From Eledone cirrhosa (Eukaryota): a stretch of DNA of 64,000 nucleotides. A program made the translations under genes and the position numbers. Where the stretch lies: assembly GCA_964016885.1 (NCBI GenBank), contig OZ024753.1, forward strand, positions 44,516,001 to 44,580,000, written 5' to 3'. Shown here in pieces: positions 701 to 60,537 of the stretch. Under the pieces are notes generated by a model. It ran no database searches, was not told the origin of the DNA, and saw only the letters and a program-made list of their open reading frames with translations. Position 1 is the stretch's first letter, and the number at the start of each line of letters is the position of its first letter.

Positions 701-788
701 ACACACATACACATATATATATGTTTATATATGTGATTTAAAACTGCACTATTCACAAGTGTATTTTAACCTTCATATCATGTCTTCC

Positions 789-859
789 TATTTTATCTGA
801 CGAAAACACAAATGTTATTGCATGATGATATTTGTTTTTGAAATGCGCATAATAAAATA
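789..859 (+). ncRNA. Type I hammerhead ribozyme motif (family B)
   Basis: TATTTTAT-CTGACGA-AAACACAAATGTTAT-TGCATG-ATGATATTTGTTTTT-GAAA-TGCGCA-TA-ATAAAATA: 8-bp helix I, about 14-bp helix II, palindromic helix III, AUA triplet. Lies in an element of about 735-895 between TA tracts. Confidence 0.88.
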
Positions 860-2139
860 CATGGAACTCTTTTAACCATCTTTTGATCTTATATATATGT
901 TTATATATATATATATATTTATATATATATCACCATCAGCAACATTTTTTTGTCCATTCTCTATATAACAAATGACATTTTCTTCCTTTTTTCACCTTAC
1001 TTCTTAACTCTACTTTGTTTCAAATCCTGTCAAGGTGAACTTTGCCTTTAATCCTTTTAAGGTCGATAAACAAGGAAGCTGTCCAATAATAGGAATTGGT
1101 TCTTTCCCGATTTCTCTTTCTCATTCTACCTCTTCTTTTTTTACCTCTTTCTGGAATAAATCAGATATTATCACTCCTGAAGAGAAATGAGTTTCACCAG
1201 GTTTAAATCTCCAAGACATAACGACATCCCTACAAATCAAGAAGAATTTCAGAATCCATTGGGTCCCTGCAATGCTGAGATAATCCTTACATTAATGTAC
1301 AGTCTAGTAGACATGAATATTTGGGGGCTACATACTCTGTTAAGGTATTCCTTCCATTAGTGTATGTTTGAGACAGTCAGCCTAGCAGACATGAATATTT
1401 GGGGACTACATATTCCCAAAGAAAGATTCATTTAAATGACAGACAATCAATTATTCAACAAACCTCTTAACTGCCTAATTTCATTTTCCATTTGGAATTT
1501 CTTCTGCTATGTCTTCTTCTGGGCAAGCTTTGAATGTCATGATGTCTAATTATCTCTCAATATTAATTTGAGGCTTTGCTTCTCTATAACAAATTACTTT
1601 ATCATTTGAAATGACAACAAAAAGCTCAGAGAAAAAAAAAACGCAATTGTTATAGTTGTTTTGTTTGTTTTAGTTGTTTTCTTTGCTTTAGTTATTTTGT
1701 TTGACTGGTTTAGCTATAAACAGCCAAGGCCATGGCAAAGCATTGACTTCTATGATTGTTTAAATGTTTCATTTTTCTGAAGTTTTTAGTCTTGGCACAT
1801 TGTTCGGGCGATTGCTTTCACAACCTGATAGCTGTTTTTACTGTTCATGTTTCTGTTGTTTTAGCCCTAAGTCATCAACCTTCGTTGAATAGCTACATGG
1901 TCAAAAGTATTCAAATTATAACTCAGATCATTTATTTAGTAAACTGGTTTGTTTAGTAAATGGGCATTTAGCTGTAAAAATTATTTCAAATAAAGAGCCG
2001 TAAACATTGGCAAATTCCCTATTAATGGTGTCACAATAAAATACACCCAGTACACTCTGTAAAATGGTTGCTGCAGAAATTATGTTAAACTAAGAACTGA
2101 TTGATCAATGCAACACCCTACTCATCAAATTAACAAGCA

Positions 2140-4140: not shown

Positions 4141-4559
4141 TGTTAAAGAATAAAAATTAATGATAAAATATAAATGTATTTTAAAAAACAAGACCCCTGA
4201 GGATGTGAAGCCCAAAGCTATAACTTATTTACCTTATAGATAAGTCCAGCACTGTCCTCCTTCTACACACAAATATCTCAGACAAACACACACACATAAT
4301 GTGAAAATAATTTTGTGTTAGAAACTGTAAGTGTCGAATATTGTTACTTTACGGAATATAGAATATTAAGATTGTAATATTTCTAATTTCAAATTCTCCC
4401 CAAATTTTATGGCATCATTACAAGGATTCATCGAAGTAATAATGTTATAAATAAGTTGACAGTTACAGACAATGTGGAAGTTATAACTGACAATTGTGAG
4501 CTGAACCACTTGATATTAAGTCTTTCTTCCTCATAGCCACAATTATATATAATGGTTGA

Positions 4560-6676
4560 GGCTCTATACCTCATAGCTATGACTGTATATACACCAGTTA
4601 AGGCTCTCATGCTCTACATCATAGCTATGACTGTATATACACCAGTTAAGGCTCTCATGCTCTACATCATAGCTATGACTGTATATACACCAGTTAAGGC
4701 TCTCATGCTCTACATCATAGCTATGACTGTATATACACCAGTTAAGGCTCTCATGCTCTACATCATAGCTATGACTGTATATACACCAGTTAAGGCTCTC
4801 ATGCTCTACATCATAGCTATCACTATATATACACCAGTTAAGGCTCTCATGCTCTACATCATAGCTATGACTATATATACACCAGTTAAGGCTCTCATCT
4901 TTCTACCTCATAGCTATGACTATATATACACCAGTTAAGGCTCTCATCTTTCTACCTCATAGCTATGACTGTATATACACCAGTTAAGGCTCTCATCTTT
5001 CTACCTCATAGCTATGACTGTATATACACCAGTTAAGGCTCTCATCTTTCTACCTCATAGCTATGACTGTATATACACCAGTTAAGGCTCTCATCTTTTT
5101 ACCTCATAGCTATGACTATATATACACCAGTTAAGGCTCTCATGCTCTACCTCATAGCTATGACTATATATACACCAGTTAAGGCTCTCATGCTCTACCT
5201 CATAGCTATGACTATATATACACCAGTTAAGGCTCTCATGCTCTACATCATAGCTATGACTATATATACACCAGTTAAGGCTCTCATGCTCTACATCATA
5301 GCTATGACTATATATACACCAGTTAAGGCTCTCATCTTTCTACCTCATAGCTATGACTATATATACACCAGTTAAGGCTCTCATCTTTCTACCTCATAGC
5401 TATGACTATATATACACCAGTTAAGGCTCTCATCTTTCTACCTCATAGCTATGACTATATATACACCAGTTAAGGCTCTCATCTTTCTACCTCATAGCTA
5501 TGACTATATATACACCAGTTAAGGCTCTCATCTTTCTACCTCATAGCTATGACTGTATATACACCAGTTAAGGCTCTCATGCTCTACCTCATAGCTATCA
5601 CTATATATACACCAGTTAAGGCTCTCATGCTCTACATCATAGCTATGACTATATATTCACCAGTTAAGGCTCTCATGCTCTACATCATAGCTATGACTAT
5701 ATATTCACCAGTTAAGGCTCTCATGCTCTACCTCATAGCTATGACTATATATACACCAGTTAAGGCTCTCATGCTCTACATCATAGCTATGACTATATAT
5801 ACACCAGTTAAGGCTCTCATCTTTCTACCTCATAGCTATGACTATATATACACCAGTTAAGGCTCTCATCTTTCTACATCATAGCTATGACTATATATAC
5901 ACCAGTTAAGGCTCTCATCTTTCTACCTCATAGCTATGACTATATATTCACCAGTTAAGGCTCTCATGCTCTACATCATAGCTATGACTATATATTCACC
6001 AGTTAAGGCTCTCATGCTCTACATCATAGCTATGACTATATATACACCAGTTAAGGCTCTCATCTTTCTACCTCATAGCTATCACTATATATACACCAGT
6101 TAAGGCTCTCATGCTCTACATCATAGCTATGACTATATATACACCAGTTAAGGCTCTCATGCTCTACATCATAGCTATGACTATATATACACCAGTTAAG
6201 GCTCTCATCTTTCTACCTCATAGCTATGACTATATATTCACCAGTTAAGGCTCTCATGCTCTACATCATAGCTATGACTGTATATACACCAGTTAAGGCT
6301 CTCATCTTTCTACCTCATAGCTATGACTATATATTCACCAGTTAAGGCTCTCATGCTCTACATCATAGCTATGACTGTATATACACCAGTTAAGGCTCTT
6401 ATCTTTCTACCTCATAGCTATGACTGTATATACACCAGTTAAGGCTCTCATCTTTCTACCTCATAGCTATCACTATATATACACCAGTTAAGGCTCTCAT
6501 CTTTCTACCTCATAGCTATCACTATATATACACCAGTTAAGGCTCTCATGCTCTACATCATAGCTATGACTATATATTCACCAGTTAAGGCTCTCATGCT
6601 CTACATCATAGCTATGACTATATATTCACCAGTTAAGGCTCTCATGCTCTACATCATAGCTATGACTATATATACA
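4560..6676. repeat. 48/49-bp minisatellite, about 43-44 copies
   Basis: Unit CCAGTTAAGGCTCTCAT(GC/CTT)TCTAC(A/C)TCATAGCTATGACT(G/A)TATATACA with no spacers. Explains the 16-aa repeat ORFs. Confidence 0.97.
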
Positions 6677-7802
6677 GTGTTCAAGTCTCTCTTCCTCAGA
6701 AACAGCCCTGAGCTCCCCAAACATGAACAGCCCTGAGCTCCCCAACACTTAAATAGGGCCCTGAATATATCACAACTATCTAAACTCTTATGATGAAGAG
6801 AGACGAGAGCATTAAACAGTGTATATAGTTTATTCCTACAGATCTGTGTTTTGGCTTGGTTTCTATGGCTGGATGACCTTCCTAACACCAGCCACATTAC
6901 AGTGTGGTCTGGGTGCTTTTTATCATGACACCGAAATGACCACCTTACAGGGTGAATATATCTATCTATTTATACATATATATACACATACATGTATATG
7001 TATGTATATATATGTGTTTAAATATATGTATACTTTTCTATCTATACATATATATATATACACACACATACATACACTGTTTTCAAATAATTTCAACACA
7101 AAATTATCTCAAACATGGCAAGCTCCACAATTTAATGGAAATATTTCTAAAAGTTAGAGAATTCGAATATATTTTTTTATATTTTAAATTTTCATAGTTT
7201 ATAGATACGAAAATTGTAGAAATAAAATGACATTTCCGAACACATCTATTCTATTTTAACAGAATAAAAAAATAAATTCCCCTAAAAATGTTTGAATAAT
7301 ATATTTTCATTTATATTCTATTTATCATTTTATCATTTGCCTGTTTATGGGTGACATTTCTAATTTTTGTTTTTCTCTTTAATACAAACAAACCGTTCTC
7401 TCACTATTTGCCTCGGAATAAATTCCACTTTAGCCAAATTTTTGTAAAGCACTTTATTTCTTCACAAACAAATACAGCAAATGTAGCCTTACCCTCAAGT
7501 GTAATTATTATTAAATAGTTCTTTATGGAAATCAAAGTAAATGTTTTGTTTATTTCATTTTATTTTATTCTTATTTTTATTTTTATTTTATTTTATTTTT
7601 TTTTTTTTTTTTTTTACCAAATTAGTTGCCTCCATCACCTCATTTCAAATATTTGTAATTTCATGACAGAAATGGGAATAGTTCTTTAGAAAAAAGTATC
7701 TAAACATTAACCTAATGCGGTTTCTCCCATGTATTAGTCATTAGAGATTATGAAAGAGAGTTTTACAGGACTAACAAATATCCATTATATATATATATAT
7801 AT

Positions 7803-7924
7803 AGGAAAAGAATCAGGACCCCGATGGCTGAGCTCCAGCCTTTTCGACAGCTAGATCCTATTACCCACTCTACTACCCTCGAGTACTCTGGTGTGTTATG
7901 GTATCTTACCACATCTTCTTTGTT
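7803..7924 (+). mobile_element. PLE-type remnant family C (inverted arm plus tail, second arm deleted)
   Basis: GGAAAAGAATCAGGACCCCGATGGCTGAGCTC...GACAGCTAGAT joined directly to the family tail CCTATTACCCACTCTACTACCC...CTTTGTT. (TA)n on both sides. Confidence 0.75.
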
Positions 7925-8084
7925 ATATATATATATATTTTGAGTGTATGTTGGTTGTTTACCGACACCTCAGTATGCAGATTGGAGCACTCGACGAAGT
8001 ACGCAGGTTGGTTTGTTTACTCCGGAGTAATGTAAAATAAGTAAGTCAAACATGTAAAATTTGGCTTCGTTTATTATAAATTCT

Positions 8085-8209: not shown

Positions 8210-8411
8210 TGTTGAAATATGTTCCACTCTGTCAATTCAACGATATGTCCAGCTCCTGGGTGTGTTGTTAGTCCTCTGAAGAACTGGAATCATATATATA
8301 TATATACATCTGTGTGTGTGTGTGTGAGACCCAGTTTCAATTGGGGTTAAACACAGTAGGTAACGTACTCAATACATTAGTAGAGTGTGAACATCATGTT
8401 TAATATAGAAG

Positions 8412-8465
8412 TGGCTTCTACAGGACTAGATCTGTTTCATTCAAAATAAATCATCAGTAAAGCCA
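8412..8465 (-). ncRNA. Type I hammerhead motif (family D, full core)
   Basis: TGGCTTT-A-CTGATGA-TTTATTTTGAAT-GAAA-CAG-ATCTAGTC-CTG-TA-GAAGCCA: 7-bp helix I offset by one extra A, weak helix II, GUA triplet. The family tail continues to about 8330. Confidence 0.65.
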
Positions 8466-8805
8466 ACTGTCCTTGTAAAATGGTTGTATTTATGTTTTCC
8501 AGAAAACATATGAGAACTAAAAGAGGAGAAAAGCTTGTCAGTTCTATACCATTATGCCCAGCTAGAATGAGAGACATAAGAAAGAGTAAAAACTATAGGA
8601 AGACACAGATAGATAAACATAAATACACCCACCACCACCACAACCAACACACACACACACATGTACACATGCCAAACATAATGCCACACACACAGACACA
8701 GATGCAAACACATGCACAGACAGGGAAGCATATGACAGAAAGACAAGATAGAGTAAACAAAATAAGTCCAGAAGAAGAGGAGGTGCAGAGGAAAACAAAT
8801 AATTA

Positions 8806-9918: not shown

Positions 9919-10265
9919 TCCTATGCGAGCAAGACAACCACTCTTGCCTCAAGTGGGAAAACCCCCGTCCAAACCCATGCAAGCGTGGAACACGGACGCT
10001 AAACCTGATGATGATGATGATGATGAAAAGGGTCAAAACACTTGCTTGAGTGAGGTTCCTTCTCTGAAGACCTTCTGCTGTCCAGATCTCTTGACGGTTT
10101 TTTACCACTATATATATATATATGTATAAAGGGAGAGATAGTAAGAAAAATGGACATTAAATAATGATATGTATATACATATATATTCTTTTAGTGTTAG
10201 TGTTTTAAGTCATTGGATTGTGGTCATATATATTCATGTATATATGTATATATATATATATATAT

Positions 10266-10443
10266 AGGAAAAAAGCTCAAGCCGTTTCGACGGGTATTTC
10301 TGGAGTCCAGAAATAGCCGTCGAAACGGCTTGAGCTCTGCCGTCGGGGGTCATAATCTTTCCTATTTCCCACTCTACTACCCTAAGAGTAGAGTACTCTG
10401 GTGCGTTATGGTCCATCTGGTTCCTTACCACAATTCCTTTGTT
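10266..10443 (+). mobile_element. PLE-type fold-back remnant family C
   Basis: Palindrome centred near 10305. GAAA-CGGC-TTGAGCTCT-GCCG-TC-GGGGGTC at 10322-10351, then the conserved tail. TA flanks. Confidence 0.8.
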
Positions 10444-10908: not shown

Positions 10909-10957
<49 letters not shown>

Positions 10958-10960
<3 letters not shown>

Positions 10961-11086
10961 GAAGGTGAGTAATAGTGTAGAACAATAAAACTATGCATAT
11001 ATCAGATAAGTAGCACTCAACTGCTGTTGTTTTCGAAATGCACATAATAAAATATATGGAACTTTTTTAACCATCTTTTAATTTCT

Positions 11087-11095
<9 letters not shown>
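10958..11095. mobile_element. Internally deleted family B remnant
   Basis: Reverse tail homologous to 32811-32880 joined to GAAATGCACATAATAAAATA...TTTTAACCATC (3' half of the family B hammerhead). Confidence 0.7.
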
Positions 11096-11174: not shown

Positions 11175-11490
11175 CGTGAATTTGTTTAGCAAGATTCTTT
11201 ATCTGAAAACGTGTGTTGAAACCCATATTGTTATACTTTGGTAGGGTCATGTTGCCAAAAAGAAACACACGCACCAGTTGCTTTCACTTCAATTTATTAT
11301 AATAAATTTATAAATTTAGGAATTTATAAATTTCCAGTTAGTTGGTTGGTTCCACAACCAGATGGTTGTTTATATATTGTCAAAGTTCTTTCGTCACACA
11401 TTCTGTGACCTCTTCAGTGACTGGGGATTCTTTTCTTTGTTTTTGTGCGTCTCCTTTGTTCTGTCCTACGCCATCTTGTTTTTGTGTGTG
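11172..11490 (-). mobile_element. PLE-type remnant family E with hammerhead core at 11389-11417
   Basis: Minus strand CTGAAGA-G-GTCACA-GAATG-TGTGAC-GAAA: 6-bp helix II with one extra G after A9. Helices I and III could not be reconstructed. Confidence 0.5.
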
Positions 11491-12145: not shown

Positions 12146-12361
12146 AGAAAAAGAGTCAGGACTCCGATGGCTGAGCTCTAGCCATTCCGATAGCTAAGTC
12201 TGAACTGAGGTCTGAACTGAGTTCAAATCTAGCTGTCGAAATGGTCGAAGCTCAGCCATTCAGGGTCCTGACTCTTTTCCTATTACCCACTCTACTACCC
12301 TAAGTATCGAGTACTCTGGTGCATTATGGTCCACCTGGTTCCTTACCACACAGCCTTTGTT
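12146..12361 (+). mobile_element. PLE-type fold-back remnant family C (diverged)
   Basis: GAAAAAGAGTCAGGAC... / ...GTCCTGACTCTTTTCC inverted arms plus conserved tail, in TA context. Confidence 0.8.
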
Positions 12362-14532: not shown

Positions 14533-14729
14533 AAAAGGAAAAAGTATGACCCTGACGGAAGAGCTCAAGCCGTTTCGACGGCTATTTCTGGACTCAGAAA
14601 TAGCCGTCGAAACGGCTTGAGCTCTGCCGTCGGGGTCATACTTTTTCCTTTTTCCCACTCTACTACCCTAAGTATTGAGTACTCTGGTGCGTTATGGCCC
14701 TTCTGGTTCCTTACCACAATTCCTTTGTT
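14533..14729 (+). mobile_element. PLE-type fold-back remnant family C (58-bp arms plus ~77-nt tail)
   Basis: Arms 14533-14590 and 14595-14652, spacer GACT. Half-hammerhead GAAA(14609)-CGGC-TTGAGCTCT-GCCG-TC-GGGGTC. Confidence 0.85.
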
Positions 14730-15883: not shown

Positions 15884-15992
15884 ACCGAATAAATCTCTTT
15901 TACTGCATCTTTCTGTTCTTTTTAATTCTTTATATATATATATATATATATAATGTATTAATAAATGGAAACTATATTTATAAAACCATAAT

Positions 15993-16057
15993 TATTTTAT
16001 TATATATATTTCAAGGGCAACCAAGCCAATCTTGGTGCACTTTCATCAGATAAAATA
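15993..16057 (-). ncRNA. Type I hammerhead ribozyme motif (family A)
   Basis: TATTTTAT-CTGATGA-AAGTGCACCAAG-ATTGG-CTTGGTTGCCCTT-GAAA-TATATA-TA-ATAAAATA. The outer inverted repeat TTTATAAAAC/GTTTTATAAA extends helix I. Confidence 0.85.
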
Positions 16058-16350
16058 CAAAATTTGTTTTATAAATAGTGACATAACTATGGAAAACAAC
16101 CTTGACGGTTGAAAATTCGCTGGATAGTCATATTGAATTTTAACTCCAGCATCTGTTGAGTGCTCTATATCAGTTATAAACTTTTAAGTTTGTTGGAATC
16201 CCAACAAATTAAATATAACTTCTACATATATATATATATATATTAGTGTCCGAAACGTTAAGACCCTCTTCCTGCTATATCAAGCGTTAACCTAATATAT
16301 CCCTTCAATTTACTGCACCGATTGTGTTGTTATTTCTGTTTACCTTATAC

Positions 16351-16914: not shown

Positions 16915-16916
<2 letters not shown>

Positions 16917-17093
16917 CAAAGACAGTGTGGTAAGAAACCAGGTGGACCATAATGCACCAGAATACTTGATACTTAGGGTAGTAGAGTAGGAAATAGGAAA
17001 AGAGTCAGGACCCCGGCGGCTGAGATCTGGCCGTTTCGGATCTAGCTGTCGAAACGGCCAGAGCTCAACTGTCGGGGTCCTGACTCTTTTCCT
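16915..17093 (-). mobile_element. PLE-type fold-back remnant family C
   Basis: Reverse tail, then TAGGAAAAGAGTCAGGACCCC... / ...GGGGTCCTGACTCTTTTCCTA. TA flanks. Confidence 0.82.
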
Positions 17094-17634: not shown

Positions 17635-17675
<41 letters not shown>

Positions 17676-17716
17676 ATGATATTAATAAATGGAAACTATA
17701 TTTATAAAACCATATT

Positions 17717-17779
17717 TATTTTATTATATATATATTTCAAGGGTACCAAAACTTTGGTATGCCCTCATCAGATAAAATA
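17717..17779 (-). ncRNA. Type I hammerhead ribozyme motif (family A, second copy)
   Basis: TATTTTAT-CTGATGA-GGGCATACCAA-AGTT-TTGGTACCCTT-GAAA-TATATATA-TA-ATAAAATA. Confidence 0.8.
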
Positions 17780-17843
17780 CAAAATTTGTTTTATAAATGG
17801 TGACTTACCCAAGAAACCAGACCTTATCGGTTCAGGTTCAGTT

Positions 17844-23275: not shown

Positions 23276-24689
23276 TAGCACCCAGTACACACTGTAAAGT
23301 GATTCATTTCAGGAAGGGCATCAAGCCGTAGAAAGCTTGCCAAGCAATTGGGTTGGGAGGACTCTTCAGTTCATGTAAAAAGAGAGAACATCTGTTGTTG
23401 TTGCTGTTGTTCCTTCATCAGTTTCAACAATGAGTGTTTCAGTTGTTTTATCAGCAAAACAGTCTACTTGTAAAATTAACATACAAGTGACTGAGTATTA
23501 CTCAGAATGTTACATATTAAAGAAGTTTTCAAGGTCATGAGCAATGAGAAATAAAATGTCTTGTTCAAGGATACAATATTTAACTGTTGGTCAATCAATG
23601 ATAAACATTGATTGCCAGCTGAATTCTTTATAGAAATACAAAAATATACTGAAGCAAAAACCAAACTAAACAGTGAGTGTGTTTTATTATATATATATAT
23701 ATATATTTTTTGTGGGGGGGGGGGGGGGGGGGTAATATTAGAACAACATAGCCCTCCCCCAAAATATACAATACACTGTGGGGAATCAAACTCATGACTC
23801 AATGATTGTGAGCTGAGCAACTTAACTACTAAACCATTACACATCCATTCTAGAGAACAGCTTGTAGATGTTAACCTAGCTAGAGATATTATTACAGTAG
23901 ATACTGGTATAACTAATATTTCTTACTCAAAATTAAATGTGCATCACTACTTTAAAGTCAATAGTGTAATTGAATTTAAAGAAAATAAAAATATAGAAAT
24001 CAAAATGTTTTTAATATGTTACTTCACAGGTTGGACAGATTTGCAATTTAAATGTAATTTTCCTGGTATCAACCACTAAAGAAAATAGCATTCATGTTTT
24101 GAATTAGCATAACTGTTTTATACAATTTGGCTTCACATGTGTTTTGCTTCTTTGCTAGTTTAAAAAACAAAAATGTTTTCCTACATTTTTACTGTTGGCT
24201 TAGAATAGATAAGTCAAAATGAGAAACTTTTCTTCTATTTTCTTCAAACTTCAATTATTTCCACTAATTAATCTTTTCGGAGTATCTAAATTATTTGTTT
24301 AAATTTGTTTCCTTGCTTTTATTCTATTTAACATCTATTTGTAATTCTTGTGCTGTTTATACTTATATTTTGGTCATTGAAACAAGTTAGATTTAAAAAG
24401 CATCTCATAAAATTTTAACAGCCGAAATAATGTCTATAACAGTTTGATGTGTTAAACTGGTGGATTAGAAGATTGGTTGTCTTATACTCTTTACATATGA
24501 TCTTCTATGATGTGAGTTCAGAGCTGCTTTTGTTGTATATTTCTCCAAACTTAGTTCAGTCTGAAATAATATGATCATGAATACAAGCAGCCAAAAAGAG
24601 GTTCCTTTGAAGGGTCTTTGGCGTAAAGTTACTCGATAGAGTGCATAGCTTGGAGATGAAAGAGTCACTCCAGGTAGAGCTGCTACTTT

Positions 24690-24748
24690 CTCCGAATTAA
24701 GAGATCAAGTTAGTTCAGTCTGAACTAACTTGATCTCTTAATTCGGAG
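24690..24748. repeat. Perfect palindrome with 29-bp arms and 1-nt spacer
   Basis: CTCCGAATTAAGAGATCAAGTTAGTTCAG-T-CTGAACTAACTTGATCTCTTAATTCGGAG. Confidence 0.95.
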
Positions 24749-24895
24749 CATGGCTTTGTGGTTAGAGCATTGGGCTTGTAATCGAAAGGCTGCGAGTTCA
24801 ATTCTCGGACCGGGTAATGTGTTGTTTCCTTGAGCAAGACACTTTATTTTACGTTGTTCCAGTTTACTCAGGTGTAGAAATGAGGATGATAGGAC
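24748..24895 (+). mobile_element. 5' part of tRNA/CORE-like SINE
   Basis: A box, B box and CORE-like segment as at 17143. Confidence 0.8.
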
Positions 24896-32140: not shown

Positions 32141-32330
32141 ATAGATATATATATATCAGTGAATTGGCAGTATCGGTAGAGGGTTGGGCGCAATTGCTTT
32201 CTAGCATACTTATGTCCCTTTAAGGTCCGAGTTCAAATCCCGGCGAGGCTAACTTTACCTTTCATCCTTACGGGGTCGATAAAATAAAGTACCAGTACAA
32301 GAGTAGAAACAATATATATATATTATTATT

Positions 32331-32464
32331 ATAGAAATGATTTCTACAAGACTAGCACTGTTTCTTTCATCAGGAAAGTGTTTTCTATTTCAAAATAAAT
32401 ATACCTACATTTTGAGTATCTTCTGTAACTGTGGTCACCTCACAGTGTACATCAGGAATCCACC

Positions 32465-32544: not shown

Positions 32545-32656
32545 CTTGAAGGCAGCCACCTGGACTAGCAACTGCCTTCTCGTCTTGGGCATCTCTCTCT
32601 GCTTTTCAGCCCCTTGGATTGTGTCTATTATATTCCTTTGTTGGATAAATTTTGGA

Positions 32657-32714
32657 ATACCTGATGATGTCACCGGGTTGATACTGAACCCTGTCATTGA
32701 AATGTTCATAGTAT
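32657..32714 (+). ncRNA. Type I hammerhead motif (family I)
   Basis: ATAC-CTGATGA-TGTCACCGGGTT-GATACTG-AACCCTGTCATT-GAAA-TGTTCA-TA-GTAT, then a ~45-nt tail into (TA)n. Confidence 0.7.
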
Positions 32715-32758
32715 GATAAACCTTTAAGGAATTACACCAATCCAGTCTCCTGTTATTT

Positions 32759-32811
<53 letters not shown>

Positions 32812-32937
32812 GTAGGAGGTGAGTTTTATTGTAGTACAATAAAGCAATGCAGATATTGGATAAGTAGCACTCTACAGTTTGTAGGACTGGAGTATAAATA
32901 ATATATAAGATCAAAAGATGGTTAAAAGAGTTCCATG

Positions 32938-33008
32938 TATTTTATTATGTGCATTTCAAAAACAAATATCATCATGCGATGACATTTGCGTTTTCGTCAG
33001 ATAAAATA
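32938..33008 (-). ncRNA. Type I hammerhead motif (family B, left arm)
   Basis: Reverse complement of 33071-33141, except helix III reads TGCACA. Confidence 0.85.
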
Positions 33009-33070
33009 GGGAGACATGATATGAAGGTTAAAAAACACTTGTGTTTTTTAACCTTCATATCATGTCTCCC

Positions 33071-33141
33071 TATTTTATCTGACGAAAACGCAAATGTCAT
33101 CGCATGATGATATTTGTTTTTGAAATGCGCATAATAAAATA
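33071..33141 (+). ncRNA. Type I hammerhead motif (family B, right arm)
   Basis: TATTTTAT-CTGACGA-AAACGCAAATGTCAT-CGCATG-ATGATATTTGTTTTT-GAAA-TGCGCA-TA-ATAAAATA. Confidence 0.9.
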
Positions 33142-33169
33142 CATGGAACTCTTTTAACCATCTTTTGAT

Positions 33170-33215
<46 letters not shown>

Positions 33216-33711
33216 TATACACACACAAGGTATGTTCAATATATAATGAGCAAAAACTGCAGAAGAGACATTAGATGTAATTATTCAATTAGATAGCTAC
33301 TTCATAGTAAGGAAAGGGTGAAACCCTTTTTACAGCATCTCTCTCTTTCTCTTCCTATACTGTCATACCTCCAATTTCTTTAACATTAAAAGGATATCCC
33401 CACCAATATTTAATCTACCTCAGCCTTTCATTCACACAATGATTTATGGATGATCATCCAGTTTTTTTTCAAATTCATTTCATGATGAAAAGATCATAGC
33501 AATATTTGTAAATCTCGTGGCTTAAAATATTTTTCTATATTTTCATAATACATGATATATTTCATTCTCATTATATGTAAATATTACATACATACGTATG
33601 TATGTATACATACATAAATATATATATGTACACAAACATATGCATATATATATATGTACTCACATATATAAAGATACATATAACTATCTATCTATCACTC
33701 TCTCTCTCTCC

Positions 33712-34372: not shown

Positions 34373-34605
34373 ATATATATATATATACACACATATATAT
34401 ACACACATATATATGTTTATATATATATATATAAACATATAAGAGAGAGAGAGAGAGAGAAAAAGTAAGAAGAGATAGATGGAAGATAGGTTTAGCTATA
34501 GACATAGATATATTACACTGAAACTAATAGTTTACAGTTTTCCACGTTTTTCAGAAATTTTAATATTTAAATGTTTTTTTGCCCCTTGAAATGTCGCATT
34601 ATATT

Positions 34606-35059
34606 GGATTGGCAGTATCAGTAGAGGGTCGGACGCCATGCTGGGGTGGTGGATTGGCAGTATCAGTAGAGGGTCGGATGCCATGCTGGGGTGGTGGATT
34701 GGCAGTATCAGTAGAGGGTCGGACGCCATGCTGGGGTGGTGGATTGGCAGTATCAGTAGAGGGTCGGACGCCATGCTGGGGTGGTGGATTGGCAGTATCA
34801 GTAGAGGGTCGGACGCCATGCTGGGGTGGTGGATTGGCAGTATCAGTAGAGGGTCGGACGCCATGCTGGGGTGGTGGATTGGCAGTATAGGTAGAGGGTC
34901 GGACGCCATGCTTTCCAGCATAGTTACGTCCCTTTACGATCTGAGTTCAAATCCCGCCGAGGTTGACTTTGCCTTTCATCCTTACGAGGTCGATAAAATA
35001 AAGTACCAGTAATGCACTGAGTAATTGCTGGCCTTGTGCCTAAAGTAGAAACAATTATA
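34606..35059 (+). mobile_element. Meta-like SINE with its 45-bp 5' head tandemly repeated (7 heads)
   Basis: GGATTGGCAGTATCAGTAGAGGGTCGGACGCCATGCTGGGGTGGT starts at 34606, 34651, 34696, 34741, 34786 and 34831; a seventh head at 34876 runs into an intact SINE body. ATTATATT flanks both ends. Confidence 0.92.
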
Positions 35060-43205: not shown

Positions 43206-43438
43206 TATAAACTGTATAAATAAATATAGTTGTTGTTGTCTGCCAGTTTCTGTTGCAGAAATACAGCTTATCATCGGTGCAGCTAATGTTGTGTCTACTC
43301 TGGCACTACTAAATCATTTACTAAGAGAAATATCAAAATCTGCAACTTTGTATTTTCCTGCATGCTATTGTTTAGGAGACAGTAGGAGTGTTTTAGGATT
43401 CTTTATAATGTATTTACCAGAATCAACAATGTAAGTTT

Positions 43439-45088
43439 TGCCACCACTATCACTACCACCACTACCACTATCACCACCAACAACACAACTACTACCAATA
43501 CTACCACCACTACCACTATCACCACCAACAACAGAACTACTACCAATACTACCATCACTACCACTATCACCACCAACAACAGAACTACTACCAATACTAC
43601 CACCACTACCACTATCACCACCAACAACACAACTACTACCAATACTACCACCACTACCACTATCACCACCAATACTACCATCACTACCACTATCACCACC
43701 AACAACACAACTACTACCAATACTACCACCACTACCACTATCACCACCAACAACACAACTACTACCAATACTACCACTATCACCACCAACAACACAACTA
43801 CTACCAATACTACCATCACTACCACCATCACCACCAACAACACAACTACTACCAATACTACCATCACTACCACTATCACCACCAATACTACCATCACTAC
43901 CACCATCACCACCAACAACACAACTACTACCAATACTACCATCACTACCACTATCACCACCAATACTACCACCACTACCACCATCACCACCAACAACACA
44001 ACTACTACCAATACTACCATCACTACCACTATCACCACCAATACTACCATCACTACCACCATCACCACCAACAACACAACTACTACCAATACTACCATCA
44101 CTACCACTATCACCACCAATACTACCACCACTACCACCATCACCACCAACAACACAACTACTACCAATACTACCATCACTACCACTATCACCACCAATAC
44201 TACCATCACTACCACTATCACCACCAACAACACAACTACTACCAATACTACCATCACTACCACCATCACCACCAACAACACAACTACTACCACCACTACC
44301 ACTATCACCACCAACAACACAACTACTACCAATACTACCACCACCACCACCAACAACACAACTACTACCACCACTACCACTATCACCACCAACAACACAA
44401 CTACTACCACCACTACCACTACCACCAACAACACAACTACTACCACCACTATCAGTATCACTACCAACAACACAACTACTACTACCAATACTACCACCAC
44501 CCACAACTACTATCACTATCACCACTACCACTATCACTACTAACACCACAACTACTACCAATACTACCACCACTACCACTACCAACAACACAACTACTAC
44601 CACCACCACTATCACTACCAACACCACAACTACTACCAATACTACCACCACTATCACCACCAACACCACAACTACTACTAATTCTATCACCAATAATACT
44701 AGCACCACCACTACCACAACCATCACCAACACCACCACCACCACTTCCACCAATACTAGCAAGACAAATAACACTAACATCATCACCACCACTACTACCA
44801 GCAACAACACTCAATACCACCACCATCACCACCAACAACAACACTATCACCATCACCACCACTACCAAAACCACAACCACCACCACTGTGTCACCCACAA
44901 CCACCACCACAGCATCACCCATAGCACTACAAACCACACTCACCACCATTACCACCACCACCAAAACCACAACCACCACCGCTGTGTCACCCACACCACC
45001 ACCGCTGTGTCACCCACACCACCACCACCGCTGTGTCACCCACACCACTGCAAACTGCACTCACCACCACCACTATCACCACACTACC

Positions 45089-45123
<35 letters not shown>
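43439..45123. repeat. 1.7-kb ACC/ACT/ACA triplet-derived array with higher-order units
   Basis: Recurring TCACCACCAACAACACAACTACTACCAATACTACCA block; almost no G on the + strand; open in several frames on both strands. Confidence 0.93.
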
Positions 45124-46204
45124 CCAAAGGAATAATTAGATTATTATATATAACAATAATTATGATCAATATAATTTATATCAATGGTTGATTTAGAAAT
45201 TAAATTGTTTTGAGGTTGAAAAATAATAATTCTTTGTTGCTTTCTCAGTAAAAGGAGAAACACACAAACCCATAAATACTCCCCCACACACATAGACACC
45301 TCTACACACTTCCACACACACACCTCCACACGCACACACACACTCACCTCCACACACACCTCCACTTCTGTAATTTCCAAGACATATGGTGAGGGGGGGG
45401 GGGGTGAAACAGATTGGCCAAACCTAACATAAAAATGGATGCTATTCTTATATTGGATCATGATAGGTTAAAATCTTATTGTAAAGATTATTTAGGATCA
45501 ATAGAAATGGGAAAAATATTCAATATTTCAGGTCTAACCATTTCTGCTGCACAGATAGAAAAAGGTATAAGGTTACTGGAATGATAGCAGATCTCGAAAT
45601 TTCTATTGAATTCTAAGAATAGAGGATAGATTTGCTGCCTGGGTCAGTATACCTGTTGGACTGGTTTTATTTATTGTATATAAATATCAGTTTTCGATGT
45701 TTCACCTTTCAAGATTTCATTGCTGCAAGGCTAACAATATATATCTTCCATAGACAATGGTATTGAATATTGAATTTTTACAACAGTTAAAACGTAGAAG
45801 GATTTTCATTAACTAAATGCAATAAATACGTATATCCATTTCTTAAAGTCATAAAGTTGAAATGAAATAATTTGATTTGCATAATATTTGAAATATAATG
45901 CAATCCTCCTCAACATCATCATCACTTTTACACCCATGTTTCCACAATTCCATGAGTTGGATGGGTTCGTTGCAGCACAAAATCTCTTCACTTGCCATGT
46001 TCCTTCATCTTCTCCTTTGTGAGTCTCAACGATTTGAGATCAGCTTTCACCAGCTCTGCCCAGTTCTTCCTTGGTCTATATAACATGATAATAATTATAG
46101 ATGAATCTCCCCAATCTCAGAGAGCCTGCAAGGGCTTTGGGCACACTTCCCTCCTCCATTACAAATCATTAGGCAAATAATAATTATATTACCATATTTC
46201 AAAG

Positions 46205-46490: not shown

Positions 46491-47070
46491 TTTTGATTTA
46501 AAATCTAGGTTTATGGTAAAATATCTCTTAAGTTTTTATGCCTGAAAAGTATTGAAATGCAGGTTGTTTTAAATTTAAGAATCTATAAATATTTATCTAT
46601 TCTACAATTGGGTAGATGTCTTTTGTCTTGGTTGTGTTTATTCTTGTATCAGTTGGTTGGTTGTATCAACAGCCTCTCTAGATAATTGACTTCACTACGT
46701 ATTGATCCAGTTTGACAATGTTTGTTCTCTAGGTAGATGGCTACATCACTTCTTAGATAATTTGTATAAATAATCTCTTGTGGCTGACTGACTGAATACT
46801 AAGATATATTCTTTGATGTTCACTTTTCTTGTCACTTCCCTTCAGATATATATTATCTCTCTCCCTCTGTGTGGATGTTGTAAGACCAAAGAGTTCACTT
46901 TGCAATCATTAGGTTTGATTACCCTTCCTAATATCCTGGATCAAATGTCATTTACTATATCCTTGGATTAACTCATGCCTTATGAGTGAAATTGAGTAGA
47001 TGGAAACTGTTTTGAAGCTTATCAGATACACTTTACCTGAAAGACAGTGACCTGCTTGAGCAGAAAGCTC

Positions 47071-47477
47071 TGTGAGTTGGGGTGGCTGGACCTGACGGAT
47101 GGTGACCCACTCGAGGAGGGAACCTTGTGATGTGAGTTGGGGTGGCTGGACCTGACAGATGGTGACCCACTAGAGGAGGGAACCTTGTGAGTTGGGGTGG
47201 CTGGACCTGACAGATGGTGACCCACTTGAGGAGGGAACCTTGTGAGTTGGGTTGGCTGGACCTGACAGATGGTGACCCACTAGAGGAGGGAACCTTGTGA
47301 GTTGGGTTGGCTGGACCTGACAGATGGTGACCCACTAGAGGAGGGAACCTTGTGAGTTGGGTTGGCTGGACCTGACAGATGGTGACCCACTAGAGGAGGG
47401 AACCTTGTGAGTTGGGTTGGCTGAACCTGACAGATGGTGACCCACTTGAGGAGGGAACCTTGTGAGTTGGGTTGGCT
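47071..47477. repeat. 55-bp GC-rich minisatellite, 7 units plus a partial unit
   Basis: TGTGAGTTGGG(G/T)TGGCTGGACCTGACAGATGGTGACCCACTAGAGGAGGGAACCT. Confidence 0.95.
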
Positions 47478-48549
47478 ATTACTGTGGGTGTCTCTGGGCA
47501 TTTTTTACAGTAATATTTGCCATTTTCTTCAAAGGGCGCAACTAAGGCACCCCTCCCTCAGATCGAAGTGTAATGTCTGCCCCTCCCCTCTCGTTATCTT
47601 TCATTGCTTGATTTTTTTCTTTTTCTTCTTTTCATTTCCTTTTTCTGTTTTGTTCCCTTTAATAGTGTGTTTTGTTTTTGTATAAACAGCTTTGTAAAAT
47701 AAGATAACTTTCCTACATTAGAAAAGAAACTGTACCTATATTTTAAAAGAGCCTGCCATGTCACCCCCAATGCATAATTTTCAAATCATTTTTAAAATAA
47801 TAAAGAATTTGAAAGAGATTTAGTAATGTAAATAACTTTTATTTCACTGCTGTAGCTAAGTATAGAGAATTTATTTGTTTTAAATATATACATAAATAAC
47901 ATTACAAATTGCTCACAATTCTTTTTTTGGAACATAACTTAACAAAGGTTCTTATATAGAATTATAATGGAAGGTTTTTAGATAAATATAAACACTTTAA
48001 AACAAACAGTTTTGTATTGTTGTAGAACCGGGGGCAGTTTTAAGAGTTTCTGTATCAAAAGGATTATACAACATAGTATATAAATGAAAGATAACAAGAA
48101 ATTTCTTTTTTCATAATAATACATTATTATTAATTAGTAAAAAGTGAGATAGAAATCAATAATTACATTTCATCTGGAGAAATCAATATTTAAGTATTAT
48201 TTATAAGCAACATGTTAAGTGTGAGAAATAATGTGATAAGTAATTATTGTTCTCTTATTAAGAATACTGAATGTGATAAAATTGATAGCATTCACCTACA
48301 TTCTCTAAATGATTGTTTTTTTCTTTTGCATTCTACTGAAAGGTAAATATTTTAGATGAAACATAAATGAGGTGTAGCTTTCAGTAAATGTTCATAGAAT
48401 ACTCACAAAACTGAAGGGAATCAAGGGAGTTTGTGGCATAGTGGCAGCACTTGTTTTCATATTAACCCCTTAGATATCAAACCAAATGAAACCAGTCCTG
48501 GTTTTACAATGTAAAACTGTTTCAGTTTTCTAATGTACTTCTTCTTTAA

Positions 48550-57910: not shown

Positions 57911-58190
57911 TCATACTCTGAACCATTCTCATATCTGTCCTTGTCAGTTTCTCTCATGTTCCCCTTTCAGTATCCACATCTCACTCATAAAATGTACCGG
58001 CAACATTTATCACACACTAGAGAGTTTGCCATGTATCTTGCAAGACTAAGAAGCACTCAATACTCTACATTATCAGTGTTCATTTAAGACATGTGATTAA
58101 CAAGTTAAATAGAAGAAAGAACAAATACAAAAAAAAAGGATGAGTGGGTGAAAGGAATGGGAGAAACAGAAGGATTGGAGTGCCAGAGGT

Positions 58191-58312
58191 TGATTTCTCC
58201 CGAATGAAACAGTTCTAGTCCTGTAGAAACCTTTCTATAATAAATATGTATACTCTGCTTTGTATTGAGTACCTTGCTTACTGTGGTTACCCCCGATTGA
58301 ACCTGGGATAAA

Positions 58313-58395: not shown

Positions 58396-58397
<2 letters not shown>

Positions 58398-58598
58398 CAA
58401 AGGAAATGTGGTAAGGGACCAGGTGGACCATAACGCACCAAAGTACTCAATACTTAGGGTAGTAGAGTGGGTAATAGGAACGAGTAGGACCCCGACGGCT
58501 GAGCTCAAGCCGTTTCGACGACTAATTCTGGACGGAATTAGCCGTCCAGAATTAGCCGTCAAAACGGCTTGAGCTCAGCCGTCGGGGTCCTACTCGTT

Positions 58599-58603
<5 letters not shown>
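58396..58603 (-). mobile_element. PLE-type fold-back remnant family C (62-bp arms plus ~78-nt tail)
   Basis: Arms 58474-58535 and 58542-58603; tail 58396-58473; long (TA)n on both sides. Confidence 0.85.
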
Positions 58604-59535: not shown

Positions 59536-60537
59536 TCACATCTGTAGTATCAGAGCTGTGATATCTCAATTCAGAGAAGTAGCGGCTCTACCTGGAGTGA
59601 TTCTCTGATCTCTGAGCTACACATTCTATTGAGTAATTTACTCTAAAGACTCCTCTTTGGAGGAACCACAATAAAACTAAATACCACAAAAGAAAAAACA
59701 AAGACATTTTAGTTGTTGGTATTATCCATTTATCTACATTTTAAATGGAATATAATATATTGATCTATAATATAAGAAAACCAAAGATTTGAATCAAATC
59801 TCTTGCTGATTATATTTCAAAGCCCTTTTCACTCTTAAAATACACTTGTGTATTTGTGAAACATTTTGATCTAAGGAATGACACCTTGATGAAAAGTGGA
59901 TACATTTATTGAAGTATTTACAGTAAGAGGTAAAGTGAGTGTTCACTTTTAGTGAATATTATCTCTATTTGTTGAATAGTTGTTTCTTCCCACACAGTAA
60001 CCATTGCCTTACAGAAATGTTCAGAATTTTAATGGAAAGCATGTCAAGATATTTCACTTCCTTCAAAGAATTTCTTCCTCAGTTAAGGAAAATGTCACGT
60101 TCTTTTAGTGATGTATTAGTATTTGCTTTGATACTTCAGATATCAGATCGTTACAATCACTACATACAATCACTAACCCTTTCAGAATACTTTTGTTTTT
60201 CTCTAGTTCCACTTCATATATCTCTTGTCATCTTTGTTTTCTTTCTAAGAAACTACACACACACACTATGTGTGAAAATGTTTACGGTTTTATTGTAACA
60301 AGTCTTGTTTCTTCAATGTTTTTATATCTTACTGGATCAAAAAATAGTGTGTACATTTACTACGCTAAAAGAAACATTTAGAAGTTGGTGTTGTTGGTTT
60401 TTTTGCCCATTTTCTTGGGGGGAGGGGGGGGGGGAGATTTTTTTTTATTTCTTTTAAGGTAGTAAGTTTTTAATGTCAGAATTTCTTTTCTTTTTTTTAA
60501 TTTACATTACCTTACTATTTAAAGAGAGAAAAACAAT

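Follow-up and report, generated by a model that had tools for sequence, protein, structure and literature searches.

This study asks how two opposed copies of a ribozyme-bearing repeat came to be joined head to head at 32811-33178 of a 64,000-nt stretch of Eledone cirrhosa DNA (the window, whose numbering is used throughout), and whether either ribozyme would work from such a site. The locus was found to be real sequence of a known architecture and a new family member. Two copies of an abundant repeat with a hammerhead, here called family B, face each other head to head inside a (TA)n tract.

The palindrome and its repeat family

Self-comparison of the window delimited a palindrome of 278 bp with arms of 138 nt each, a 2-nt loop and a single mismatch, bearing out the near-perfect palindrome of about 275 bp described in the first-pass annotation. 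The mismatch lies between 32950 (T) and 33129 (G) and is a CpG-type change. TA letters make up the outer 6-7 nt of each arm. The features of the locus and of the other family B copies in the window are as follows.

32762-32810, no strand: left (TA)n target microsatellite, seen in the sequence; 474 raw reads enter TA repeats before 32810
32811-32900, minus strand: 3' tail of the family, 90 nt, on a single arm only; contigs and reads cross the tail/arm junction
32901-33038, minus strand (sense): left arm, the tail-bearing copy; with the loop and the shared GTG it reaches 33043
32938-33008, minus strand: minimal type I hammerhead, core at 33000 intact, predicted cut after 32946
33036-33043, no strand: inversion junction CAC-TT-GTG, 3-nt shared complementarity, 2-nt loop from the tailed arm
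33041-33178, plus strand: right arm, the tailless copy; its end point is identical to that of the solo sister
33071-33141, plus strand: minimal type I hammerhead, core at 33079, predicted cut 33133/33134
33172-33205, no strand: right (TA)n target microsatellite, seen in the sequence
735-895, plus strand: non-inverted tailless sister, 96% identity to both arms, hammerhead core at 797, micro-hairpin at 754-761
10957-11092, no strand: second family B insertion, with 65 nt of tail (minus strand), 5 nt and a tailless 56-nt piece (plus strand); arms non-overlapping

The centre of the palindrome (CAC-TT-GTG, 33036-33043) and the micro-hairpin of the sister (CAC-AA-GTG, 754-761) were both present as claimed. 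The sister (161 nt) aligned across the entire minus-strand arm, loop included, and its CACAAGTG is the family-standard motif. Loose ends behind 33043, present in 41, 27 and 36 contigs and in 345 raw reads, ran on into the 5' sequence of the sister in reverse complement, indicating that the micro-hairpin is standard for the family. Moreover, the two arms shared five differences from the sister and differed mutually at 1 of 138 positions, which indicates that both were copied from one source template.

The region 32805-33185 was aligned with three contig sets of one sample and with one raw-read run from another study. A total of 4,783, 4,132 and 4,044 contigs, respectively, and 5,167 reads matched it, mostly 90-99% alike; these depths are not copy numbers, and judged from them family B is abundant. 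No match to a 29-nt family motif was found in metagenome and viral contigs, and the family B unit with its tail is not spanned by any open frame.

The junction between the tail and the left arm was crossed by independent contigs (5 records) and by about 1,200-1,350 raw reads per bin, which identifies the 90-nt piece as the 3' tail of the family. An initial reading of this piece as a 5' head, taken from the copy at 10957, was overturned by the contig and read alignments. The tail was confined to a single end and lies between two fixed ends. It had also been reported in a deleted copy at 10958-11095; 65 of its 90 nt were indeed recovered there at 83% identity (10957-11021), but that copy is an inversion and not a plain deletion. 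TA repeats flanked 3/3 family B copies in the window, in agreement with the reads, and none of the three was in tandem; the loose ends at the tail end were TA repeats among the matches listed. No duplication of flanking DNA was observed at the palindrome locus. A MITE or other DNA transposon was rejected, since the two outer ends do not match and the junctions are variable.

Hammerhead motifs and the predicted fate of a read-through RNA

Both arms and the sister contain the conserved core CUGANGA, GAAA and UH in a three-helix junction, and a hammerhead descriptor detected five cores in the window compared to none in 200 doublet shuffles. The plus-strand motif has an 8-bp stem I, a stem II with 15 of 16 bp paired and a self-complementary 8-nt stem III, and the minus-strand motif is built of stems of these same lengths. 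On the minus strand the stem III palindrome is broken by the mismatch at 32950, and the calculated energy of the stem III self-dimer was -3.7 kcal/mol in the left arm compared to -10.5 kcal/mol in the right arm and the sister. The proposal of an intact hammerhead on each strand was thus upheld for both cores but not for stem III of the minus strand, which has lost its self-complementarity. Within 33071-33141, none of 14 variants fell at the 11 core positions among the matches listed (40 of 87 rows), and 8 of 9 stem variants retained a pair (G-U counted) among the matches listed; several of these variants are CpG sites. The helix II closing pair is A-U in the palindrome copy, not G10.1-C11.1; the family variants include a G at position 33086 and, separately, a C at position 33121. 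Rfam gave no hammerhead match at the gathering score in the window or at E<=10 in 32700-33300; the matches that it did return were hairpin-driven, miRNA-like and all under the gathering score. The term 'double hammerhead' in its literature sense of two same-strand motifs was rejected because the two motifs lie on opposite strands.

These motifs resemble the minimal type I hammerheads described for Penelope-like elements (PLEs) in PMC4209133 in the core CUGANGA/GAAA/UH, the long helix II and the short palindromic helix III. They differ in a 16-bp helix II closed by A-U, compared to the highly conserved G10.1-C11.1 of that account, and helix I is 8 bp. The same source describes minimal PLE hammerheads as dimer-dependent, with the short palindromic helix III implying dimer action, and reports pairs of minimal motifs on opposite strands, 100-700 bp apart, in Schistosoma; the two cores of the palindrome are 79 bp apart.

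When the palindrome was folded in silico, free energies of -238.6 and -229.6 kcal/mol were obtained for the plus and minus strands, compared to -140.2 and -137.0 kcal/mol, respectively, with the hammerhead forced, and the hairpin was therefore favoured by 93-98 kcal/mol. In prefix folds, the duplex zipped from the centre before the core was made. From either side, transcription yields the antisense arm ahead of the sense arm, and the ribozyme is therefore predicted to remain unfolded. A single arm folded as a monomer also preferred an alternative structure, by 5 to 7 kcal/mol, and the presence of a single sense motif per transcript means that the dimer required by such motifs could not form. 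According to these models, the ribozymes would be switched off in read-through RNA and neither would work from the palindrome locus. The suggestion that a read-through dsRNA competes with the ribozyme fold thus holds in silico and goes further than proposed, with a 138-bp duplex as the predicted winner. That duplex would be an ADAR or Dicer substrate as a by-product, and only if the site is transcribed. As described in PMC5625713, palindromic repeats of frogs are heavily edited and the potential-dsRNA fraction of octopus is unusually high. If palindromes were this dense genome-wide, more near-perfect dsRNA would be open to A-to-I editing.

Inverted inserts and the origin of the head-to-head layout

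The palindrome is one of 10 inverted inserts with a one-sided tail in the 64-kb window, which belong to three families:

Family B: 32811 and 10957
Family C: 515 and 32304
Family D: 7803, 10265, 12147, 14533, 16915 and 58397

In five of the 10 inserts (10957, 515, 32304, 7803 and 16915) the tailless arm reached 10-90 nt further 5' than the tailed arm, the tailed side of the 32304 insert being aligned to one of two references only. The tailed arm was the longer in one insert, the palindrome at 32811, and arm lengths were undecidable in four family D inserts, for which the reference itself came from a palindrome. The tailless end was fixed: the right arm stops at the tail boundary as the solo sister does, and the six family D inserts behaved alike.

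The head-to-head layout was seen at the palindrome locus, at 10957-11092 and in at least 20 other distinct family B junctions in independent contigs and reads, among the matches listed. This tally was drawn from 15 of 38 joint rows and 12 of 23 in-between rows; three rows were merged as seemingly one junction, two were shifted for in-between letters and two opposite-strand rows were left out. Copies with the window's own centre yield no joint row and therefore fall outside the tally. The arms were offset by 10 nt or less in 6/20 junctions, and another 6/20 left from inside the tail, both among the matches listed; in junctions leaving from inside the tail, the arms share no sequence and thus have no overlap. 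Junction microhomology averaged 1.7 nt compared to 0.8 nt at random (P about 0.013) in the 11 rows giving it among the matches listed. Inserts with arms that do not overlap could owe this to a later loss of the palindrome centre.

The fixed tailless end, the junctions leaving from inside the tail and the five inserts with a longer tailless arm together favour a reading with two primers. On balance, the palindrome is likely to be a non-autonomous Penelope-type insertion in which each strand of the target primed its own cDNA. In this account, a PLE reverse transcriptase/GIY-YIG protein supplied in trans would nick both strands of the (TA)n tract. The first 3' end would start a cDNA at the tail end (32811) and the second would start one at the internal TAT-rich tail boundary (33178), and the template of both cDNAs would be one uncleaved source RNA, read through the ribozyme. 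These same-sense cDNAs would then join at the self-complementary CAC..GTG, either by direct annealing or after one of them has folded back and paired with its partner, and host repair would fill in the remainder. In the in vitro work of PMC11167929, the PLE protein of an anole cuts both strands of the target and extends them, with two start sites spaced by the tail length. No two-primer account of PLE inversions was found in the literature searched, in which few subscription papers were covered.

Same-sense cDNAs can anneal only at a self-complementary site, and a micro-hairpin is therefore expected under both this reading and self-priming; since a micro-palindrome is required either way, the junction itself does not separate snap-back from two primers. 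The 161-nt sister contains five 3-bp stems with 2-nt loops. A micro-hairpin centre was also found in another inverted copy, the family C palindrome at 517-610, which has a 4-bp stem and a 2-nt loop, the loop being donated by the tailless arm.

Two cDNAs from two fixed sites, with fold-back of one possibly making the join, is the account towards which we lean, in preference to snap-back alone, which appears rather unlikely. Under snap-back, one tailed cDNA would stop at GTG, fold over the 2-nt loop, copy itself and leave at the TA-rich tail boundary. The geometry of the palindrome locus agrees with this, since the tailed arm is the longer, donates the loop and is offset by 5 nt, and so do the near-identity of the arms, the tight centres of the palindromes at 517-610 and 24686-24752, and the small offsets in 6/20 junctions among the matches listed. 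Two-base DNA loops of the C-TT-G type are stable. Self-priming has also been proposed in print for Penelope (PMC3846280). However, snap-back offers no reason why the copy should stop at the end point of solo tailless copies, and snap-back of one tailed cDNA cannot yield the 6/20 listed junctions that leave from inside the tail or the 5/10 window inserts with the longer tailless arm. A 3-bp hairpin at the cDNA end was not predicted by standard DNA parameters either, a weak objection because the model disallows 2-nt loops. The self-primed fold-back put forward by the first-pass annotation is thus plausible for the join, which lies at a family-standard micro-inverted repeat with the loop from the tailed arm, but this is not proof of it, and it is insufficient for the family, in view of those junctions and inserts.

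Palindromes can also come from break repair, and their arms can undergo conversion. A rearrangement after insertion, either a tailed copy broken near its 5' end with fold-back repair or a second head-to-head insertion followed by homogenisation of the arms, would accord with the CpG-type nature of the single arm mismatch; it is nevertheless improbable, as 10 inserts in 64 kb show this layout, with a link to the tail boundary, and no duplication of flanking DNA is seen. An assembly or chimera artefact of a hairpin-prone repeat was also considered, since none of 24 pieces among the matches listed (contigs and raw reads) spans the palindrome centre and such structures are described as troubling assemblies (PMC8557442). 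Against it, the arms differ at one site with both letters present in the family, the outer ends differ and each is a family-standard end, and head-to-head joints of the family exist in independent short-read contigs and raw reads. Two runs contained 0.67 and 0.66 of the 32545-33600 words, although these runs may be from the assembly's own sample. We regard an artefact as very improbable. Equally small is the probability that the locus is a selected dsRNA element with a host function, as an ADAR/Dicer substrate or a ribozyme switch. The near-perfect 138-bp duplex predicted on both strands and the frog and octopus observations cited above (PMC5625713) speak for such a role, but the copy is young, the family is abundant, no exon or coding neighbour was detected and many similar palindromes lie nearby.

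The ends of the arms in other family B inversions were not evenly placed. Among the matches listed, 20 of 34 arm ends fell in 33134-33148, the 15 nt on the 3' side of the predicted cut, and none fell in 33126-33133; 3.9 ends would be expected in 33134-33148 if they were uniform, the ends being not fully independent. This pile-up could come from ribozyme-cut templates, from reverse transcriptase stalling at stem I, or from the CATG micro-palindrome (33142-33145) together with mapping bias. We tentatively propose, as a possibility that we hold with less confidence than two-strand priming at the palindrome itself, that the genome contains thousands of junctions of ORF-less hammerhead families which record Penelope integration, with both strands priming at two fixed sites on either side of a conserved tail hairpin and most templates ending or stalling at the folded hammerhead. 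If so, the arm ends would amount to genomic support for an in vivo role of PLE hammerheads in shaping the transposition template, the palindrome at 32811 would be a rare product of uncleaved RNA, and such insertions would act as an inherent source of perfect dsRNA. In the anole PLE in vitro, hammerhead cleavage is described as dispensable and no reads ended at the cut (PMC11167929).

Relation to known retroelements and other repeats of the window

No ORF for a reverse transcriptase or GIY-YIG domain was found in the window by Pfam search of 141 stop-to-stop frames of at least 55 aa, low-complexity frames being left out; five weak matches occurred in four of the 141 frames, none at the curated cut-off. 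PLE membership is therefore assigned by architecture, and by that analogy the palindrome appears to behave as a PLE pLTR insertion. Features given as typical of PLEs in PMC8557442 are a 5'-truncated copy in inverted orientation, a tail of 30-40 bp on a single end and a bias to (TA)n, and PMC3846280 describes head-to-head Penelope inversions with junction palindromes, read there as self-priming. The palindrome is like these insertions in its head-to-head inversion, one-ended tail and junction palindrome (PMC8557442; PMC3846280), and also in its (TA)n target, the lack of a discernible target-site duplication and a hammerhead in the repeat. It differs in that the window copies are without an ORF and that the tail is about 90 nt compared to 30-40 nt in the PLEs described in PMC8557442. 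No partial tandem, with direct pLTRs on both sides of an ORF, was seen in the window. Inversion, one-sided tail, (TA)n target, opposite-strand hammerheads and the self-priming idea are thus all already published for PLEs in the sources cited.

Metazoan non-LTR retrozymes are described as tandem and linked to PLEs (PMC7229834; bioRxiv 10.64898/2026.07.22.740005). As these sources present them, they are similarly short, AT-rich, non-coding and high in copy, with a type I hammerhead, and are thought to be mobilised by PLEs; retrozymes are head-to-tail tandems, however, whereas the window copies are monomers or head-to-head pairs with tail ends entering TA repeats.

Taken alone, the locus is an unremarkable instance of an established retroelement architecture, and its value is as a handle. 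The many independent junctions of an abundant family can separate snap-back from two-strand priming and can test whether templates end at the ribozyme cut. In L1 twin priming, the second target strand primes internally and the inverted segment is joined to the 3' segment by short microhomology. The family of the palindrome is unlike this in having a fixed internal start and arms that overlap by up to 138 nt. The origin of the inverted ends and tails of PLEs is described as undefined and unresolved in PMC8557442.

The other repeat families of the window were also surveyed. Family D (7803-7925, 10265-10443, 12147-12361, 14533-14729, 16915-17093 and 58397-58602) was inverted in (TA)n in 6/6 cases, with an 80-nt tail on one side and differing centres; the GAAAC/stem III half of a hammerhead-like motif is kept, and no CTGANGA core was detected in it. 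Family C (517-700, 8330-8475, 32304-32462 and 58185-58312) is a hammerhead-like repeat with a long stem III, and its member at 32304-32462 is an inversion with arms overlapping little or not at all. The family A hammerheads (15953-16200 and 17675-17840, minus strand) have stem I and the core in common with family B, and (AT)n stem III palindromes. After the family A copy at 16049 comes a tail-like segment that is oppositely oriented; its score was equalled in 10 of 2,000 random windows. At 11383-11417 (minus strand) there is an isolated compact hammerhead-like match with a 4-bp stem I and a 6-bp stem II, below the stricter threshold.

A word pair, ACTC..GAGT, was found in 9 of 13 segments, which comprise tails of families B, C and D and the segment beside family A. 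It sits 9-22 nt into the tails at 32811-32900, 12289-12312, 58252-58270, 8367-8386 and 16143-16161. Chance alone also makes the pair frequent: shuffled sequences gave about nine occurrences per strand compared to 20 observed on the plus strand. The pair may be a common cis-element or recognition hairpin across otherwise different families.

A further palindrome at 24686-24752 is tight, with 33-nt arms and a 1-nt loop, and is not flanked by TA; its centre motif recurs 150 nt upstream (24548-24576) and a related sequence lies at 59558-59680. A bacterial promoter scan of the window was at chance level (6 compared to 7.9), the model being bacterial and irrelevant to a eukaryote. Minisatellite arrays occupy 4519-6805 (units of 48-49 nt), 34560-34964 (45 nt), 43347-45130 (9-12/78 nt) and 47016-47515 (55 nt). 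The window contains 12 occurrences of a 15-nt motif from a dispersed repeat, compared to 0.2 expected (at 1040, 14180, 14376, 20797, 23167, 29344, 32253, 34967, 42814, 43082, 49444 and 63101). This 12-copy repeat is presumably an octopus SINE, and several of its copies are oppositely oriented with 93-98% complementarity over 150-190 nt.
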